IMG/VR virus record: IMGVR_UViG_2667527792_000006
Coordinates: 1-8,430 of that record
Source of the DNA: a virus
Lineage: Duplodnaviria > Heunggongvirae > Uroviricota > Caudoviricetes
Strand: one strand, 5' to 3'
Length of the DNA: 8,430 bases
Part shown: one piece after another, positions 1 through 8,430 of the stretch
How the letters are laid out: each line of letters opens with the position of its first letter
How positions within the stretch are numbered: position 1 is the stretch's first letter
Notes under the pieces: generated by a model
Told to the model about the DNA's origin: nothing
Databases searched by the model: none
What the model saw: only the letters and a program-made list of their open reading frames with translations
Position numbers and translations under genes: made by a program

Positions 1-299
1 GGCGCAACAGCGGGTGTGCGGCTGAGAGCCGCATCGGGGAAGTTGTGTCCATTTTCAGGGGAATGGAGTAAAAAACCATCAGTGATATGCAGTATCAATC
101 GATAAGATCCATTTAATTGACGGCGGTGCACTCATGGCACGCAGGCAGTGTTGAATAAACATCCGTTTTTTGGGTGTTTTTTTAATCTTTTTGGGATTTA
201 AATTCCTATCGATGAACGTTCGCGACGACCGCAACGCCGGATCAGCGCTGGCCCCGGCAGTGTGTTTCGCTTACAGCCCGGACAGAAAAGGCATCCACT

Positions 300-315
300 C
301 CACTGCATGCAGTGG
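300..315. repeat. 16-bp perfect palindrome CCACTGCATGCAGTGG
   Basis: Seen directly: positions 300-315 are self-complementary around a central GCATGC (SphI-like) core. Sits in a locally GC-richer patch of the otherwise AT-rich first segment. Confidence 0.5.
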
Positions 316-495
316 CGATCGTGAAGAAATACCTTCAGCATCAGAGTTATTGACTGATTGTTTGAATTTTCGGACAAACTCCTTTATTTTTAAAGAGTTG
401 ACTGAAATCAAAAGTTCTTTTTTGTTTGAGTGTATAGCAAAATCTAACCCGTAGATAATAATCTGAAACTATTCATAGACTATCACTATTTTCTA

Positions 496-747
496 CTATA
501 ATCTACTTTTGACAGAATTGATTTCGTAGGCACTATTTTTCTCTGGGCTAAAAATAATAAACCTTCGACTACCCGATCTAAATGATTTTGATAATACCAA
601 ATTGCTGTTGTAACGTGCCAAAATGTAATGCCATTCATTTTTATATCTTACCATTCCATATTCCTTTCTGAATTGCGGCTTATACCATCCAACAACCAAA
701 GAAAACATCCAAAAATAAACTAAAAACCATGCCATGTTGAATTCCAC
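496..747 (-). CDS. Downstream ORF (83 aa) continuing the membrane protein: one hydrophobic helix then a basic tail of about 60 aa
   Basis: GTG at 745-747 (ATG at 733-735). Overlaps the upstream ORF by 28 bp in another frame. A single-base insertion in the A5/T5 run would fuse the two frames (...STWHGF + LVYFWMF...). TAG stop at 496-498. Confidence 0.4.
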   Translation of the reverse strand: MEFNMAWFLVYFWMFSLVVGWYKPQFRKEYGMVRYKNEWHYILARYNSNLVLSKSFRSGSRRFIIFSPEKNSAYEINSVKSRL

Positions 748-1211
748 TCGATGTTTTCGAAGGAACTTGTTTTGCAGTATAAAAGCGAATGAAAAAAATG
801 CCCGTATCCTCTCACCACAAAAGTGATAGCAGCCGCAACTATAACAGAGAAGACCGTTAGCTTAATTGCAATATCTTGCTTTAATATAGAGAATTCGATA
901 ATAACAGGGGTAAATAGCAGAAAAATGGCAAGAAAAAGCCTTGTAAAACTCAATTCCTGCATATTACTGCGCTGTTTTACACTAATAAAAAATGCCAAAC
1001 CTATTCCCCATCCCAACAGAAATATTCCCATCACAGTGACAGCATATAATAGACTTCTGGCAACATCATCCATTCCAGCGCTAACAACCCACCATGGGTA
1101 TCCATAGTAAAAGGATATCCCCCAACCGTAAAAGTACGCACTTTCCCATCCTAAACATCCCATGTAAGCTACAAATAATGATGAATTTTTAATCAGCTTA
1201 TTGTCATCCAT
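720..1211 (-). CDS. Hypothetical polytopic membrane protein, upstream ORF (163 aa); probably the 5' part of a frameshifted gene of about 246 aa
   Basis: ATG at 1209-1211 with weak GAGA Shine-Dalgarno upstream. About four hydrophobic helices rich in W/Y/G/F. Visibly AT-rich compared with the rest of the window. TAG stop at 720-722 sits immediately after an A5 run (722-726, T5 on the coding strand). No family recognised. Confidence 0.5.
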   Translation of the reverse strand: MDDNKLIKNSSLFVAYMGCLGWESAYFYGWGISFYYGYPWWVVSAGMDDVARSLLYAVTVMGIFLLGWGIGLAFFISVKQRSNMQELSFTRLFLAIFLLFTPVIIEFSILKQDIAIKLTVFSVIVAAAITFVVRGYGHFFHSLLYCKTSSFENIEWNSTWHGF

Positions 1212-1297
1212 GTTAATTCTCGTAATTTTTCAGTAGAATTAATTAACTATAAAAATTTAATCTGTTAGATATTTAGACGCGATAATAACAGAGGTTT

Positions 1298-1317
1298 TTG
1301 TGTAGAAAAATACACAA
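1298..1317. repeat. Inverted repeat TTGTGTA-GAAAAA-TACACAA in the AT-rich region upstream of the membrane-protein ORF
   Basis: Seen directly: 7-bp arms at 1298-1304 and 1311-1317 are exact reverse complements. Lies 87-106 bp upstream of the ATG at 1211 on the template side. Operator-like, function unknown. Confidence 0.45.
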
Positions 1318-1463
1318 GATAGGTTTAACTCATGTGTTGATCCCTTCTTGAATGAAATGGAGCTAAATCTATTTGGATAGTCTGGTAATAACCAATTATT
1401 TGCATTAGTTGCGACTAGATCTGACACATAGCCTTGACAGGTTGAGAGTTACCGGTTTTGTAT

Positions 1464-1658
1464 CTGGTATTAACCGGGCGTTATTTCCAGGAGATTAACG
1501 GTAAGCGCGTGTTACTGGAACGGGGCGATTTTGTTTTTATTCCGTTAGGTTCGCACCATCAAAGTTTTTATGAGTTTGGTGCCACGCGTATATTGAACGT
1601 TGGGATCAGTAAACGCTTTTTTGAGCAGCATTACCTGCCGTTGTTGCCTTATTGCTTC
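1464..1658 (+). pseudogene. chbR: AraC-family regulator internal fragment (N-terminal sugar-binding domain), matching ChbR at roughly residues 50-115; no start, no HTH domain
   Basis: Translation [65 protein letters not shown] matches my recollection of E. coli ChbR. The frame then runs into cusA-derived sequence. Boundaries are +/-5 bp. Confidence 0.55.
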
Positions 1659-2667
1659 TGCGCTTGCCGAGCGTCTGGAAGGTGGGCGCTATATCAACGT
1701 TGAGATTAACCGTGAAAAAGCCGCGCGTTACGGTATGACGGTGGCGGATGTGCAGTTGTTTGTGACTTCTGCGGTGGGCGGGGCGATGGTTGGCGAAACG
1801 GTGGAAGGGATTGCCCGTTATCCCATTAATCTGCGTTATCCGCAAAGCTGGCGCGATAGTCCGCAGGCACTGCGCCAGTTGCCGATCCTGACGCCGATGA
1901 AGCAGCAAATCACCCTGGCAGACGTGGCCGACGTTAAAGTCTCTACCGGACCGTCGATGCTGAAAACCGAGAATGCGCGCCCGACGAGCTGGATTTATAT
2001 CGATGCCCGCGATCGTGACATGGTGTCGGTGGTTCACGATTTGCAAAAAGTGATAGCTGAAAAAGTGCAGTTAAAACCGGGCACCAGCGTGGCATTCTCC
2101 GGGCAGTTCGAGCTACTGGAGCGCGCCAACCATAAGCTGAAACTCATGGTGCCGATGACACTGATGATCATCTTCGTGCTGTTGTATCTGGCATTCCGTC
2201 GGGTGGGCGAAGCGTTGCTGATTATCAGCAGCGTACCGTTTGCGCTGGTGGGCGGCATCTGGTTGCTGTGGTGGATGGGCTTTCATCTTTCTGTGGCGAC
2301 GGGTACTGGCTTTATTGCCCTTGCCGGGGTCGCCGCCGAATTTGGCGTGGTGATGCTGATGTATTTACGTCACGCCATAGAGGCCGAGCCGTCGTTGAAT
2401 AATCCGCAAACATTCAGTGAGCAGAAGCTGGATGAGGCGTTGTATCACGGCGCGGTACTGCGCGTGCGCCCGAAAGCGATGACGGTGGCGGTGATTATCG
2501 CCGGTCTGCTGCCGATTCTGTGGGGAACGGGGGCTGGTTCAGAGGTGATGAGCCGGATTGCCGCACCGATGATTGGCGGCATGATCACCGCACCTTTGCT
2601 GTCGCTGTTTATTATCCCGGCGGCGTATAAGCTGATGTGGCTGCACCGACATCGGGTACGGAAATAA
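1659..2667 (+). CDS. cusA: CusA copper/silver RND efflux pump, C-terminal ~335 aa only (5'-truncated at a junction); the ORF-track start at 1600 lies in unrelated sequence
   Basis: Translation ends ...[23 protein letters not shown] with TAA at 2665-2667, matching the CusA C-terminus. Typical RND transmembrane helices ([15 protein letters not shown]..., [11 protein letters not shown]...). Confidence 0.85.
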
Positions 2668-2768
2668 AAGCAGGATACCCCGTTTAACCGTGTGGATTGT
2701 GTCTTGCGACGATGGGCACTAAATGTTAAAAGGTGCCCCTCAACAAAAAAGACACACAGGGGAAAGGC
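2668..2768 (+). promoter_or_regulatory. cusA-pheP intergenic region with pheP 5' leader and ribosome-binding site
   Basis: AGGGG motif at 2758-2762, 6 nt upstream of the GTG at 2769. This intergenic spacing is the native cusA-pheP arrangement in E. coli. Confidence 0.5.
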
Positions 2769-3739
2769 GTGAAAAACGCGTCAACCGTATCGGAAGATAC
2801 TGCGTCGAATCAAGAGCCGACGCTTCATCGCGGATTACATAACCGTCATATTCAACTGATTGCGCTGGGTGGCGCAATTGGTACTGGTCTGTTTCTTGGC
2901 ATTGGCCCGGCGATTCAGATGGCGGGTCCGGCTGTATTGCTGGGCTACGGCGTCGCCGGGATCATCGCTTTCCTGATTATGCGCCAGCTCGGCGAGATGG
3001 TGGTCGAAGAGCCGGTATCCGGTTCGTTTGCCCACTTTGCCTATAAATACTGGGGACCGTTCGCGGGCTTCCTCTCTGGCTGGAACTACTGGGTGATGTT
3101 CGTGCTGGTGGGGATGGCAGAGCTGACCGCTGCGGGCATCTATATGCAGTACTGGTTCCCGGATGTTCCAACGTGGATTTGGGCTGCCGCCTTCTTTATT
3201 ATCATCAACGCCGTTAACCTGGTGAACGTGCGCTTATATGGCGAAACCGAGTTCTGGTTTGCGTTGATTAAAGTGCTGGCGATCATCGGTATGATCGGCT
3301 TTGGCCTGTGGCTGCTGTTTTCTGGTCACGGCGGCGAGAAAGCCAGTATCGACAACCTCTGGCGCTACGGTGGTTTCTTCGCCACCGGCTGGAATGGGCT
3401 GATTTTGTCGCTGGCGGTAATTATGTTCTCCTTCGGCGGTCTGGAGCTGATTGGGATTACTGCCGCTGAAGCGCGCGATCCGGAAAAAAGCATTCCAAAA
3501 GCGGTAAATCAGGTGGTGTATCGCATCCTGCTGTTTTACATCGGTTCACTGGTGGTTTTACTGGCGCTCTATCCGTGGGTGGAAGTGAAATCCAACAGTA
3601 GCCCGTTTGTGATGATTTTCCATAATCTCGACAGCAACGTGGTAGCTTCTGCGCTGAACTTCGTCATTCTGGTAGCATCGCTGTCAGTGTATAACAGCGG
3701 GGTTTACTCTAACAGCCGCATGCTGTTTGGCCTTTCTGT
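2769..3739 (+). CDS. pheP: PheP phenylalanine-specific APC-family permease, N-terminal ~323 of 458 aa (3'-truncated); the ORF reads on to 3815 through foreign sequence
   Basis: GTG start giving [42 protein letters not shown]..., matching PheP. Match ends after ...[10 protein letters not shown]; the tail [24 protein letters not shown] is ybhG-derived DNA read in the wrong frame. Confidence 0.85.
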
Positions 3740-3967
3740 CCGGCGACCATCAGTTTTGTCGCCAGTGTCGCCCAGTTCACGCCAAAAACCGTCGAAACCA
3801 GCGATGAACGGCTGAAACTGATGTTCCGCGTCAAAGCGCGTATCCCACCGGAATTACTCCAGCAGCATCTGGAATATGTCAAAACCGGTTTACCGGGCGT
3901 AGCGTGGGTGCGGGTGAATGAAGAACTTCCGTGGCCTGACGACCTCGTGGTGAGGTTGCCGCAATGA
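3740..3967 (+). CDS. ybhG: HlyD-family membrane fusion protein, C-terminal ~75 aa fragment (ybhG-like)
   Basis: Frame gives ...[53 protein letters not shown] with TGA at 3965-3967 overlapping the next ATG (ATGA). No 5' end present. Confidence 0.55.
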
Positions 3968-4354
3968 CGCATCTGGAACTGGTTCCCGTCCCGCCTGTCG
4001 CGCAACTGGCGGGCGTGAGCCAGCATTATGGAAAAACCGTTGCGCTGAACAATATTACTCTCGATATTCCGGCCCGCTGTATGGTCGGGCTGATTGGTCC
4101 GGATGGCGTCGGGAAGTCGAGCTTATTGTCGTTGATTTCCGGTGCCCGCGTCATTGAGCAGGGCAATGTGATGGTGCTGGGCGGCGATATGCGCGACCCG
4201 AGGCATCGCCGCGACGTCTGCCCGCGCATCGCCTGGATGCCGCAGGGGCTGGGCAAAAACCTCTACCACACCTTGTCGGTGTATGAAAACGTCGATTTTT
4301 TCGCTCGCCTGTTCGGTCACGACAAAGCGGAGCGGGAAGTGCGAATTAATGAAC
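3964..4354 (+). CDS. ybhF: ABC transporter ATP-binding protein, N-terminal ~130 aa fragment (ybhF-like); the ORF runs to 4377 in glmS-derived sequence
   Basis: [53 protein letters not shown]... with Walker A motif GPDGVGKSS. Match ends after ...EREVRINEL; the tail CRSGRC* is chimeric. Confidence 0.6.
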
Positions 4355-5143
4355 TCTGCCGGTCTGGCCGTTGTTGATGCAGAAGGTCATATGACCCGCC
4401 TGCGTCGCCTCGGTAAAGTCCAGATGCTGGCTCAGGCAGCGGAAGAACATCCTCTGCATGGCGGCACCGGTATTGCTCATACTCGCTGGGCGACCCACGG
4501 TGAACCTTCAGAAGTGAATGCGCATCCGCATGTTTCTGAACACATTGTGGTGGTGCATAACGGCATCATCGAAAACCATGAACCGCTGCGTGAAGAGTTA
4601 AAAGCGCGTGGCTATACCTTCGTTTCTGAAACTGACACCGAAGTGATTGCCCATCTGGTGAACTGGGAGCTGAAACAAGGCGGGACTCTGCGTGAGGCTG
4701 TTCTGCGTGCTATCCCGCAGCTGCGTGGTGCGTACGGTACAGTGATTATGGACTCCCGTCACCCGGATACCCTGCTGGCGGCACGTTCTGGTAGTCCGCT
4801 GGTGATTGGCCTGGGTATGGGCGAAAACTTTATCGCTTCTGACCAGCTGGCGCTGTTGCCGGTGACCCGTCGCTTTATCTTCCTTGAAGAGGGCGATATT
4901 GCGGAAATTACTCGCCGTTCGGTAAACATCTTCGATAAAACTGGCGCGGAAGTAAAACGTCAGGATATTGAATCCAATCTGCAATATGACGCGGGCGATA
5001 AAGGTATTTACCGTCACTACATGCAGAAAGAGATCTACGAACAGCCAAACGCGATCAAAAACACCCTTACCGGGCGCATCAGCCACGGTCAGGTTGATTT
5101 AAGCGAGCTGGGACCGAACGCCGACGAACTGCTGTCGAAGGTT
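4355..5143 (+). CDS. glmS: GlmS glutamine--fructose-6-phosphate aminotransferase, internal fragment (about residues 31-293 of 609); lacks the N-terminal catalytic Cys and the whole isomerase domain
   Basis: [60 protein letters not shown]...NADELLSKV matches GlmS. The ORF-track start at 4283 lies in ybhF sequence, and the tail FSTA* is nikE antisense. Confidence 0.9.
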
Positions 5144-5960
<817 letters not shown>

Positions 5961-5964
<4 letters not shown>

Positions 5965-6284
5965 TGCGGAAAGTACCTGTACGGGCCGACAAGCCAGCCA
6001 AAACTCTGCGGCATGTCGAGTTTCTCCACTTCCGTAACCGACGAGCGGTTTTCGTAAAAATGGCTGATAAGCATCAGCATCCCCAGACGAATATCATCCG
6101 GCAGGTGCAGCCCGTCCGGATCGCTGTCCGGAATGGTTTCATGCGGTGCATAGAGCTTCCGGTTCAGATACGTTTCCGTCCGCTTTTGTGCCGCACAGGC
6201 CAGCAGTTGCAGATGGCGGTCATCAGTATCGAAATCCTCATCCAGCCGGAGTTGGGCTTTAATCTCTTCCATTGTCAGAAGCAT
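5961..6284 (-). CDS. Phage gp6-like head-tail connector / head completion protein
   Basis: 107 aa, MLLTMEEIKAQLRLDEDFDTDDRHLQLL... resembles the HK97 gp6-like connector family. Tightly packed after the capsid gene and the small ORF. Confidence 0.65.
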
Positions 6285-6286
6285 GC

Positions 6287-6487
6287 TCAGCCCTCTTTAC
6301 TGGTCGTGGCTTTTTTCTCTTTTGCCGCTTTACTGCTTTTTGCACTGATTCCGCGCTCTGCTAACCCGGCCTGAAGTGCAATCTCCTGCACACGGGCAGG
6401 AAGCGCCCCGTCGTCATACTCACCGGCCCGAATGACCTCAACACGCATACCGTCCGGTGACCATTTCAGATCTTGTTTCAGGATCAT
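6287..6487 (-). CDS. Hypothetical 66-aa protein inside the head module, with a Lys/Ala/Ser-rich C-terminal tail
   Basis: ATG at 6485-6487; stop 2 nt before the connector ATG. Same strand and tight packing as the flanking structural genes. No recognisable family. Confidence 0.4.
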   Translation of the reverse strand: MILKQDLKWSPDGMRVEVIRAGEYDDGALPARVQEIALQAGLAERGISAKSSKAAKEKKATTSKEG

Positions 6488-6510
6488 GATTCTTCACCCG
6501 TCAGAACAGG

Positions 6511-6528
6511 GGGCGCGGTTCCGCGCCC
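6511..6528 (-). other. GC-rich hairpin (GGGCGCGG-TT-CCGCGCCC) between the capsid stop and the 66-aa ORF start
   Basis: Seen directly: 8-bp GC-only arms (effectively a 7-bp stem with a 4-nt loop) within the 47-nt intergenic gap on the transcribed strand. No U-tract follows, so not a classic intrinsic terminator. Confidence 0.4.
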
Positions 6529-6536
6529 ATGAATGA

Positions 6537-7742
6537 TTACGCCGCTGCAATCTTCAGCAGTTTGATGGCCTGCGAATCGACCAGCATGCCGCCGGTGCGC
6601 TTGGTGGTATAAAAACCGACAAATGGTTTATTGGTGTACGGATCACGCAGAATGCGGGTACCGATACGGTCAACGATGGTGTAACCCCGCTTGAAGTTAC
6701 CAAATGCAATAGCTTTCGCATCAGCGGCGATATCCGGCATCTGTTCGTTTTCAGCGATACCGTAACCCGCCAGAGAGGACGGTTGCCCCAGCTCCAGCCC
6801 CGGACGCCACAGATAGTTACCCTCGGTGTCTTTCAACAGACGGATGGCAAACAGGCTGTTGTTGTTCATCATGAACTTCGCGCCAGTGCGGTGTGCCTTA
6901 CGCAGCGTGTAAATCAGTTTGATAATGGCGTCTGCGGTCACCGTCGTCGCTTCACCGGATACAATATGCTGAAGTTTACCGAACGCACGAACCTTATCGG
7001 TTTCATCGGTGGATTCATACGCCAGGAACCCTTTTGGCTTCTTGGTGCCATCACCGGTGGTAAAGGCAATTTCTTCCTGTTCAGCAAATTCGGTCGCCAG
7101 CTCGCTGTTGATCCAGGCCTCCACGTTGAAGAAGGCATCATCCAGCATTTTCTGAGTGGCCTGCGGGTTACCGTAGATTTCCCCCATGAAAGGTTCAATC
7201 AGCCCCAGTTTTGAGGTGGCAGTCTGGGAGCGCGCGTCAGTCTCGCCCACCCATCCGGAAGCCGTGCCGCCCAGATTCACCAGTTTTTTGTAGTCGGAAC
7301 CGCCAACAGTGATCACCGTGGCTTCCTGGCGCATCACCACTTCATCTTTCAGCAGGGTGAGAATGTTGCGATCCAGTGCTTCCGGCACGGCATAGCCACC
7401 GTCTTCATCGGTGCCCACCTGTAATGCCTTGCGCTCCAGATCGCGCAGACCGTCTTCACGGCCTTTACGCAGAAAGCCCACAAACGCTTCTTTATGCTCA
7501 GTGGCCAGTTTATTTTGCACACCACCTGCCGGACGTTTCAGCTCAAGCAGCTCTTTTTCAAGGTCGCTTTTGAGATTTTCCAGCTCGCTGAGTTTCCCGT
7601 TCAGGGTTTCCACCTGCCCGGCAAGTTTGCCTTTTTCCTGCTCAATCGCATCCACGCGCTTGTCGTTCTTTGCCTTGAAGTCGTCAAACTTCTGCTGCAG
7701 CTCCTGCGCGACCTGTTCCACATCTTTAATATCAACCGCCAT
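6537..7742 (-). CDS. HK97-fold major capsid protein with N-terminal coiled-coil delta (scaffold) domain
   Basis: 401 aa. First ~70 aa are heptad-like and charged (VEQVAQELQQKFDDFKAKNDKRVDAIEQEKGKLAGQVETLNGKLSELENLKSDLEKELLELK), followed by a capsid-like body. Strong AGGAG Shine-Dalgarno 7 nt upstream of the ATG at 7740-7742. Confidence 0.85.
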   Translation of the reverse strand: MAVDIKDVEQVAQELQQKFDDFKAKNDKRVDAIEQEKGKLAGQVETLNGKLSELENLKSDLEKELLELKRPAGGVQNKLATEHKEAFVGFLRKGREDGLRDLERKALQVGTDEDGGYAVPEALDRNILTLLKDEVVMRQEATVITVGGSDYKKLVNLGGTASGWVGETDARSQTATSKLGLIEPFMGEIYGNPQATQKMLDDAFFNVEAWINSELATEFAEQEEIAFTTGDGTKKPKGFLAYESTDETDKVRAFGKLQHIVSGEATTVTADAIIKLIYTLRKAHRTGAKFMMNNNSLFAIRLLKDTEGNYLWRPGLELGQPSSLAGYGIAENEQMPDIAADAKAIAFGNFKRGYTIVDRIGTRILRDPYTNKPFVGFYTTKRTGGMLVDSQAIKLLKIAAA

Positions 7743-7756
7743 CGTATTTCTCCTGA

Positions 7757-8407
7757 TTAGAAGTTCAGATTTTTCAGTGCATTCAGTGCAGAGCCCACAT
7801 CCTCAGCGTCGCGCAGGGACAGTGCGCCATAGCCCCCGGCCATGAATGCTTTGGCCTGGGTACGGGAGAGTCCGACATCACGCAGGACTCTTTCGATTTT
7901 TTTCTGTTCAGGGATTTCCCCGCGGGCCAGCGCGTTCTTGACGTCGCTGATCCGCGCCTCGTCGTTAGACGGAAACGTCACCAGACTGACTTCCCAGAGG
8001 TCGATTTCTTTCAGCAAAAAGGCTTCTTTCGTCCGGTCGTATTCCCAGTCTTTCAGGACGTACCCAATAGAAAGGCCGGTTAACGAACCGGCCTTCATGT
8101 GTGCATGTGCGCGTTTTGCCAGGGGATCATCATCAATAAGCAACCGTCCCCTGACGTAAAGCCCGACATCGTCTTCCTTCATTTCGGTGTAAACACCGAT
8201 GGGTTCATCCATGCGGTGCTGCCAGAGCAGCGCAGGTAACGCTTTTCTGTCACTCCACGCCCGCAGGGAAGCAGCAAATGCCCCGGACATCACCACATCA
8301 TCGTGGCTGTCCTTTACACCAAAGACGGAGCCATACCCTTCAAACTCACCGGAGTCACTGACAGATTTCAGACTCAGCGGTACATCAAGACGTTGTTTCG
8401 TCTGCAT
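7757..8407 (-). CDS. Prohead maturation protease (HK97 gp4-like, S78 family)
   Basis: 216 aa with the N-terminal pattern EFEGYGSVFGVKDSHDDVVMSGAF typical of phage prohead proteases. Sits directly upstream of the capsid gene with a 14-nt spacer. AAGGA Shine-Dalgarno 8 nt before the ATG at 8405-8407. Confidence 0.75.
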   Translation of the reverse strand: MQTKQRLDVPLSLKSVSDSGEFEGYGSVFGVKDSHDDVVMSGAFAASLRAWSDRKALPALLWQHRMDEPIGVYTEMKEDDVGLYVRGRLLIDDDPLAKRAHAHMKAGSLTGLSIGYVLKDWEYDRTKEAFLLKEIDLWEVSLVTFPSNDEARISDVKNALARGEIPEQKKIERVLRDVGLSRTQAKAFMAGGYGALSLRDAEDVGSALNALKNLNF

Positions 8408-8430
8408 TGGCGTTATCCTTCTGCTTACCG

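Follow-up and report, generated by a model that had tools for sequence, protein, structure and literature searches.

We found that a 66-aa open reading frame (ORF) between the major capsid gene and the connector gene of a tailed-phage head module is a genuine conserved gene under purifying selection. Its product, a 7.1-kDa protein, is a small accessory protein of the late (head) operon of an SfII/SfIV/ST64B-type temperate phage and possibly an analogue of lambda gpFI. It is most plausibly a minor head-associated tether rather than a core structural protein. The stretch of DNA that was analyzed, here called the window, is 8,430 nt long; the coordinates of the relevant features are given in Table 1.

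Table 1. Position and character of the ORF, its parts, and its neighbors in the window.
Feature	Position	Strand	Remarks
66-aa ORF	6287..6487	minus	ATG 6485-6487, TGA 6287-6289; translation MILKQDLKWSPDGMRVEVIRAGEYDDGALPARVQEIALQAGLAERGISAKSSKAAKEKKATTSKEG; PHROG 1020 member
HK97-family major capsid gene	6537-7742	minus	PF05065, E 1e-79; immediately upstream of the ORF
gp6-like connector = head-tail adaptor (Ad1) gene	5961-6284	minus	PF05135, phrog_40; immediately downstream of the ORF
Prohead protease gene	7757-8407	minus	PF04586
Head-closure gene	5647-5964	minus	PF05521
Predicted folded domain, codons 1-45	6353..6487	minus	From alignments and AF2; helix LPARVQEIALQAGL
Predicted disordered tail, codons 46-66 plus stop	6287..6352	minus	GISAKSSKAAKEKKATTSKEG; Lys/Ser/Ala-rich, pI 10; from pLDDT and family tail statistics
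Shine-Dalgarno-like GGUGA	6494..6498	minus	6 nt upstream of the ORF ATG
Connector Shine-Dalgarno GAGGG	6291..6295	minus	Inside the last codons of the ORF (K-E-G)
GC-only hairpin GGGCGCG-GAAC-CGCGCCC	6511..6528	minus	Just after the capsid stop; no T-run here

The ORF had been singled out in an original prediction made from the letters of the window. The ORF listing bore out the predicted coordinates, strand, and length, together with both quoted peptide strings, and the 2 nt claimed between the ORF and the connector ATG are indeed present (GC). The distance from the capsid stop, given as 47 nt, is actually 49 nt to the ORF ATG (6488-6536). The composition was also described correctly: the mildly acidic N-terminal part (residues 1-45) has a pI of 4.8, with eight acidic and six basic residues, and the Lys/Ala/Ser-rich C-terminal tail (residues 46-66) has a pI of 10.0, with six lysines and two glutamates. 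Because the listing for the window holds 58 ORFs of at least 40 aa, many of them spurious, a length of 66 codons is not significant in itself.

What raises the ORF above chance is a combination of its match to a catalogued family, its pattern of codon substitution, synteny in 78 loci, and conservation of its Shine-Dalgarno sequence. The product matched PHROG 1020, a family of unknown function, over its full length (E 2.3e-44; residues 1-66 on profile positions 1-66 of 66). The dN/dS ratio, computed by the Nei-Gojobori method over 35 ungapped codons of the conserved domain and with synonymous sites saturated in distant pairs, had a median of 0.23 and was below 1 in 236 of 236 usable pairs. A Shine-Dalgarno sequence, either GAGGTG or GGAG, is kept in the same place before the ATG in relatives. 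The 2.8-kb phage block around the ORF shares 96-98% identity with Shigella phages SfIV, SfII, and SfI and about 92% with Salmonella phage ST64B, and many E. coli chromosomes carry a stretch 100% identical to it. Counterparts of the ORF product are Sb7 of ST64B, SfII_07, and RefSeq WP_000601360.1 (a "hypothetical protein" of E. coli APEC O78), all of the same family as the ORF; the SfIV record leaves its counterpart ORF unannotated. The SfII and SfIV copies are 100% identical to the ORF product over residues 1-46, the C-terminal tail lying outside the search alignment. Conservation in related head modules, on which the original prediction had staked the ORF, was found: the slot holds a homologue in SfI/SfII/SfIV, in ST64B, and in prophages of Klebsiella, Yersinia, Serratia, Enterobacter, and Erwinia, among others.

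The original prediction also named a capsid-size or packaging modifier, of interest if the module belonged to a satellite, and these comparisons bear on whether the protein is such a redirector of a phage satellite. The small size of the protein and its position beside the capsid gene agree with that idea, and nothing more does. The phages to which the module is 96-98% identical are complete, and the APEC O78 copy lies within a complete prophage that has its own tail genes. The gene order there is HNH endonuclease, P27-type small terminase, large terminase, YmfR, portal, protease, capsid, and the ORF, followed by adaptor, head closure, tail terminator, sheath, tube, tape measure, and baseplate. 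Most related contigs span 30-45 kb and include tail genes. The genomic context (complete phages, a full prophage, and tail genes in 66/78 loci) thus contradicts a satellite role, which we regard as extremely unlikely.

Related loci were located by a search with a subset of the family alignment. An HK97-type capsid gene ends 9-53 nt upstream of the family gene in 78 of 78 IMG/VR loci. In each of the 77 loci whose sequence extends far enough, a gp6-like adaptor gene starts at -4 to +51 nt downstream, and 36 of these 77 have a 4-nt ATGA overlap between the small gene and the adaptor gene. Tail genes follow downstream in 66 of the 78 loci, of siphovirus type in 40 (major tail gene) and with a sheath gene in 26. 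Because the capsid and adaptor flanks are fixed with either siphovirus or sheath tails, the small gene belongs to the head module independently of tail type. We also considered whether the region downstream of the capsid gene encodes a C-terminal extension of the capsid protein reached by programmed frameshifting. This was rejected: a stop codon, a hairpin, and a Shine-Dalgarno sequence all lie within the spacer, and the spacer varies in length (9, 37, 38, 42, 43, and 46 nt, among others), so that the frame relation is not conserved.

We then surveyed presence and absence with the capsid protein as query, taking a single genome for each species. The small gene occupies the slot in Shigella, Symbiopectobacterium, Serratia, Klebsiella, Citrobacter, Enterobacter, Erwinia, Lonsdalea, Yersinia, Scandinavium, Edwardsiella, and Endozoicomonas. 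In Mangrovibacter, whose capsid is 83% identical, and also in Morganella, Proteus, Xenorhabdus, and Gilliamella (capsids 64-70% identical), the slot is empty, with capsid gene, hairpin, and adaptor gene following one another across 15-95 nt. Phage phiP27 lacks the gene despite a capsid that is 89% and an adaptor that is 69% identical, and HK97 itself has no small gene between capsid and connector. Since close relatives such as phiP27, Mangrovibacter, and HK97 do without it, the small gene is an optional accessory and not a cement required for capsid integrity. In one Morganella morganii prophage (locus L112, 3781-4086) an unrelated 101-aa ORF (MTEKNYEAIGRCKVLLEK...) fills the slot, which suggests that the capsid-adaptor junction is a hot spot for accessory insertions.

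An optional gene at such a junction could be a non-virion passenger that acts on the host or on gene expression, or an ORF whose translation tunes that of the connector. The presence/absence polymorphism of the gene and the ability of the junction to hold other cargo, as in the Morganella prophage, agree with this possibility. Against it stand the dN/dS of 0.23 and the constancy of the slot in hosts from Escherichia to Endozoicomonas, which point to a role in phage assembly; moreover, an ORF serving purely as a spacer would not be expected to have its amino-acid sequence preserved by selection. A passenger of the classical moron kind would bring its own promoter and a shift in composition, and neither was seen: there are no promoter-like sites in 5600-8430, and the GC content of the ORF is 0.537 compared with 0.534-0.539 in its neighbors. 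The hairpin upstream of the ORF belongs to the capsid gene, and we rejected the moron (an independent passenger) as a candidate. We consider a passenger role in the wider sense very unlikely.

A GC-rich hairpin lies right after the capsid stop in every related locus; its position is kept while the stem sequence differs, and in many loci a T-run follows, giving an intrinsic-terminator-like structure. The hairpin is also present where the small gene is absent (phiP27, Mangrovibacter, and HK97), and the HK97 record annotates it as a putative terminator. In the window copy the T-run is absent and a terminator scan of the window did not call the hairpin; its folding energy in a 66-nt context is not exceptional (z -0.5). 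Its significance therefore rests on positional conservation and not on the folding energy in the window. The hairpin is probably a leaky terminator or an mRNA stabilizer that sets the ratio of capsid to connector expression. Because the ORF has no promoter-like site of its own, the small gene is presumably read from late transcripts that pass the capsid hairpin and is expressed with the low-copy connector genes. The ORF and the connector gene are probably translationally coupled, since the two are tightly packed and the connector Shine-Dalgarno sequence sits inside the last codons of the ORF. Co-expression with the structural genes, as originally predicted, is supported by the common orientation, the lack of a separate promoter-like site, and the packing against the connector gene.

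Searches for known relatives agreed with the earlier statement that the protein matches no recognized head protein. Queried with the ORF product alone and with a profile of 30 sequences, Pfam, NCBIfam, and the PDB sequences yielded nothing beyond chance or low-complexity matches, and no PDB structure matched in fold. The window ORF remained unmatched in Pfam at E values up to 1, and the only similarities of family members in Pfam were weak, low-complexity ones to PF16031 (TonB polyproline region) and PF05887 (procyclin EP repeats). Known decoration and cement proteins (gpD, Soc, Hoc, Dec, gp12, and similar) had no sequence or fold similarity to the ORF product. The solved structure closest to the window capsid is that of the RcGTA capsid (6tb9). 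The ORF is thus already catalogued (PHROG 1020, Sb7, WP_000601360.1), and its entries carry no function, Pfam family, or structure. A literature search found no paper on Sb7, no virion proteome or cryo-EM map for phages of the SfII/ST64B type, and no earlier account of the family architecture or of the variation in repeat length described below.

One similarity proved to be a trap for automated annotation. The W-S-P-D-G beta-turn of the family mimics a propeller blade motif and draws in hundreds of long propeller proteins. We rejected membership in the PD40/WD40-like beta-propellers: the long propeller proteins match only profile positions 5-25, in 4-14 separate stretches each, and the ORF product is a single hairpin with no Pfam match, so that the likeness is one of the SPDG motif.

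A word-indexed search with the ORF protein retrieved enterobacterial relatives only, and a profile search among 1.84 billion representatives added about 30-35 small homologues (44-104 aa). All true members consist of a ~45-aa N-terminal domain, a low-complexity spacer, and a basic C-terminus. The consensus of the N-terminal domain is hxLxKxLKWSPDGxxVExIxAGEYxxxxLPxRAxEIAxQxGI, in which P11, G13, G22, and R32 are invariant in the family alignments. This domain is predicted to fold as a beta-hairpin around the invariant W-S-P-D-G turn, followed by a loop (AGEY) and then a helix. AF2 run with 29 sequences gave a pLDDT of 85-89 for residues 1-40 and below 50 for residues 48-63, and the tail of the ORF product is accordingly predicted to be disordered. 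The window tail, GISAKSSKAAKEKKATTSKEG, is the counterpart of the variable spacer and basic C-terminus seen across the family.

The tails of 104 unique family sequences are 19-87 aa long and share a pattern of charge. The last eight residues carry a net charge of at least +3 in 91 of the 104 proteins (typically KKSKK, KKGKK, KKAKK, or KRGKTK), and the tail minus these eight residues is net acidic, with a median of -6. The spacers are often tandem repeats, (PE)n with 2-18 copies or (EQP)n with 2-13 copies, ending in KKxKK. Two divergent members (from Endozoicomonas and from locus L085) have no PE or EQP repeats and instead carry Glu/Ala/Lys-rich stretches resembling ER/K-type single helices. 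The window copy is of a minority type, with a short, directly basic Lys/Ser/Ala tail and no repeat.

Between near-identical prophage genes, in which the flanking domain and the tip are alike, the copy number of (PE)n or (EQP)n varies, a VNTR-like polymorphism (loci L006-L009, L019-L066, L068, L075-L080, L092, and L099). In a prophage from an Arsukibacterium metagenome-assembled genome (MAG; locus L137, 3754-4068), the slot holds a 104-aa protein that is a probable distant homologue by profile comparison (hhalign 76%, E 2e-5). Its Lys/Ala-rich disordered segment is N-terminal rather than C-terminal, giving a permuted architecture.

We compared the family with gpFI of phage lambda. According to a review, gpFI forms a bridge between capsid and terminase-DNA complex and promotes packaging, and suppressor mutations can bypass the need for it (PMC13595911). 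In other phages, MCP3 of TP901-1 is reported to be similar to gpFI, and a DNA packaging chaperone is listed for JBD30, namely gp43. The gene order is alike, E-FI-FII in lambda and capsid-ORF-adaptor here (78/78 and 77/77 loci for the two flanks), and so are the small size of the protein and the fact that it is dispensable or can be bypassed. In the sequence of gpFI, an acidic linker joins a helical N-terminal module to a C-terminal one, and a disordered acidic linker also recurs in the bipartite layout of most family members. There are differences, however. The families share no sequence, profile, or fold similarity: neither the ORF product nor any of 29 family members matched PF14000 (Packaging_FI), the ORF product did not match the fold of the head-binding C-terminal domain of gpFI (PDB 2LSM), and hhalign of the family profile (A3) against the single gpFI sequence gave a probability of 0.5%. 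The module order is reversed, in that the folded domain of the ORF family is N-terminal and its putative second module is a short Lys-rich peptide. The phage of the ORF also differs from lambda in having an HK97-type capsid with an HNH-assisted, P27-type terminase. We therefore speak of analogy, not membership: the ORF family would be a functional analogue of gpFI and not a homologue.

Because gpFI occupies the same slot with two modules and an acidic linker, we favor an FI-like role, as a packaging or head-completion helper that tethers the head to DNA and is present in minor amounts. We hold this reading tentatively and at less than even confidence. Of the roles named in the original prediction, a DNA-binding head-completion or packaging factor fits this anatomy best. 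The folded domain would dock on the prohead or head, and the spacer would hold out the lysine-rich end, which could bind a polyanion, most likely DNA or the DNA-terminase complex. In the window copy the whole Lys/Ser/Ala tail would be the polyanion-binding part; with its own tail short and basic, the spacer picture for this copy comes from its homologues. Small amounts of the protein would suffice to help packaging or head completion, much as gpFI does in lambda. Two features sit less easily with this role: the acidic spacer of most relatives fits poorly with DNA binding, and repeat-length hypervariability is more typical of exposed surface proteins.

The latter feature leads to a different reading, in which the protein is a Hoc-like decoration or whisker. 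The domain would sit on the outside of the mature capsid, for example at one copy per hexamer, and the spacer would project the cationic tip, which would change surface properties or aid reversible sticking to the anionic cell envelope. T4 Hoc, T5 pb10, and SPP1 gp12 are dispensable small head accessories of this kind, each with a capsid-binding module and a projecting part. The capsid gene is adjacent in every locus, the gene is dispensable like those of most decoration proteins, and the length of the spacer is hypervariable between near-identical phages, as expected of an exposed non-essential appendage. The spacers also look extended or rod-like (TonB-like and procyclin-like EP repeats, Glu/Ala/Lys-rich stretches). 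PE- and EQP-type repeats form extended, rod-like segments, and the likeness to the TonB polyproline spacer and procyclin EP repeats is compositional only and confined to the spacers of homologues, the window copy having no repeat. On the other hand, decoration genes are usually upstream of the capsid gene, and this gene lies downstream of the terminator-like hairpin, unlike those of Hoc, pb10, and gp12, and is probably coupled to a gene whose product is required in only about 12 copies. It also counts against a whisker that HK97-family capsids of this kind are stable without cement proteins. The family has no Ig-like or collagen-like domain, in contrast to those accessories, and resembles no known decoration protein in fold or sequence. 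Finally, a capsid surface signature tracking gene presence is absent, only one capsid column, a conservative one (I274), separating gene-bearing from gene-less capsids. We judge a whisker to be rather unlikely, though it is the main rival of the FI-like reading.

Matched low stoichiometry, as suggested by the packing and overlap with the adaptor gene, would also suit an accessory of the neck or portal vertex. In this case about 12 copies would sit on the adaptor or portal ring, in the manner of a collar whisker or an adaptor-loading helper, and the basic end would contact the tail or the end of the DNA. Co-variation with the neighboring genes gave mixed signals. In a mirror-tree analysis, the folded domain correlated with the capsid at r 0.81 and, indistinguishably, with the adaptor at 0.80 (range 0.72-0.81 when the protease and head-closure proteins are included), so that neither stood out as the partner, and its partial correlations with the two were about equal (0.55 for the capsid and 0.51 for the adaptor), which speaks against a preference for the adaptor. 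A single type of folded domain accompanies the same adaptor type in two capsid clusters, and pairs of loci with close capsids and distant adaptors have divergent folded domains (mean distance 0.40), as a neck protein might; yet in the same analysis several folded-domain types occur with a single adaptor cluster. The phiP27 genome, with its 69% identical adaptor, also lacks the gene. We consider a neck accessory distinctly unlikely.

The FI-like helper and the whisker have an anatomy in common, and the family as a whole may be an unrecognized class of head-associated tether, analogous in function to gpFI but unrelated in fold, in which a rigid spacer joins a docking domain to a cationic tip. 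Slippage of the (PE)n/(EQP)n repeats would set how far the tether reaches, and the tether would either recruit the DNA-terminase complex to proheads or serve as an adjustable capsid whisker. This more specific proposal is possible, if somewhat doubtful. Small accessory genes beside capsid genes are common and almost never characterized, and this one occurs widely among prophages of Escherichia, Shigella, Salmonella, Klebsiella, Yersinia, Serratia, and others. If the FI-like reading is true, FI-type function would have arisen more than once at this genomic position, and an accessory factor would be added to HK97-type, HNH-dependent packaging. If the protein is a surface whisker, variation in repeat length would give phage particles a simple tunable trait. 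In both cases, the result is a modest addition to phage assembly biology and not a new system.

The same head module contains another conserved small ORF. In the APEC O78 prophage (locus L146, 12965-13147), a 60-aa homologue of YmfR lies between the large terminase and portal genes. YmfR is a gene name from the e14 prophage, and the annotations of SfII and phiP27 call the product a "putative integral membrane protein".

Phage homology in the window starts at 5662, and positions 1-5661 are a patchwork, within which 1654-3739 is a contiguous cusA-pheP region; other fragments presumably derive, from their resemblance by eye, from an ABC-transporter ATPase gene, glmS, and a second ABC ATPase gene. 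At most about 37% of the patchwork occurs in one place in any of 5,426 complete E. coli genomes, and it looks like a chimeric assembly or artificial concatenation and not a natural locus. The junction truncates the head-closure gene, whose ORF is 105 aa long compared with 136 aa (411 nt) in SfII and APEC O78 and takes its last few codons from unrelated sequence. The 66-aa ORF is unaffected by the junction, because it lies well inside the contiguous phage block.

Three records with unexpected hosts also belong to the set of related sequences (OR844966.1 and loci L104 and L097). OR844966.1, "Enterococcus phage Efm 3-10" (1,429 bp), encodes a protein 86% identical to the ORF product, the same as the ST64B copy. 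A contig from a "Bacillota" MAG carries a 96%-identical capsid, and one from "Martelella alba", an alphaproteobacterium, carries an 81%-identical capsid together with an Enterobacterales-type small gene. All three records look mislabeled or contaminated.
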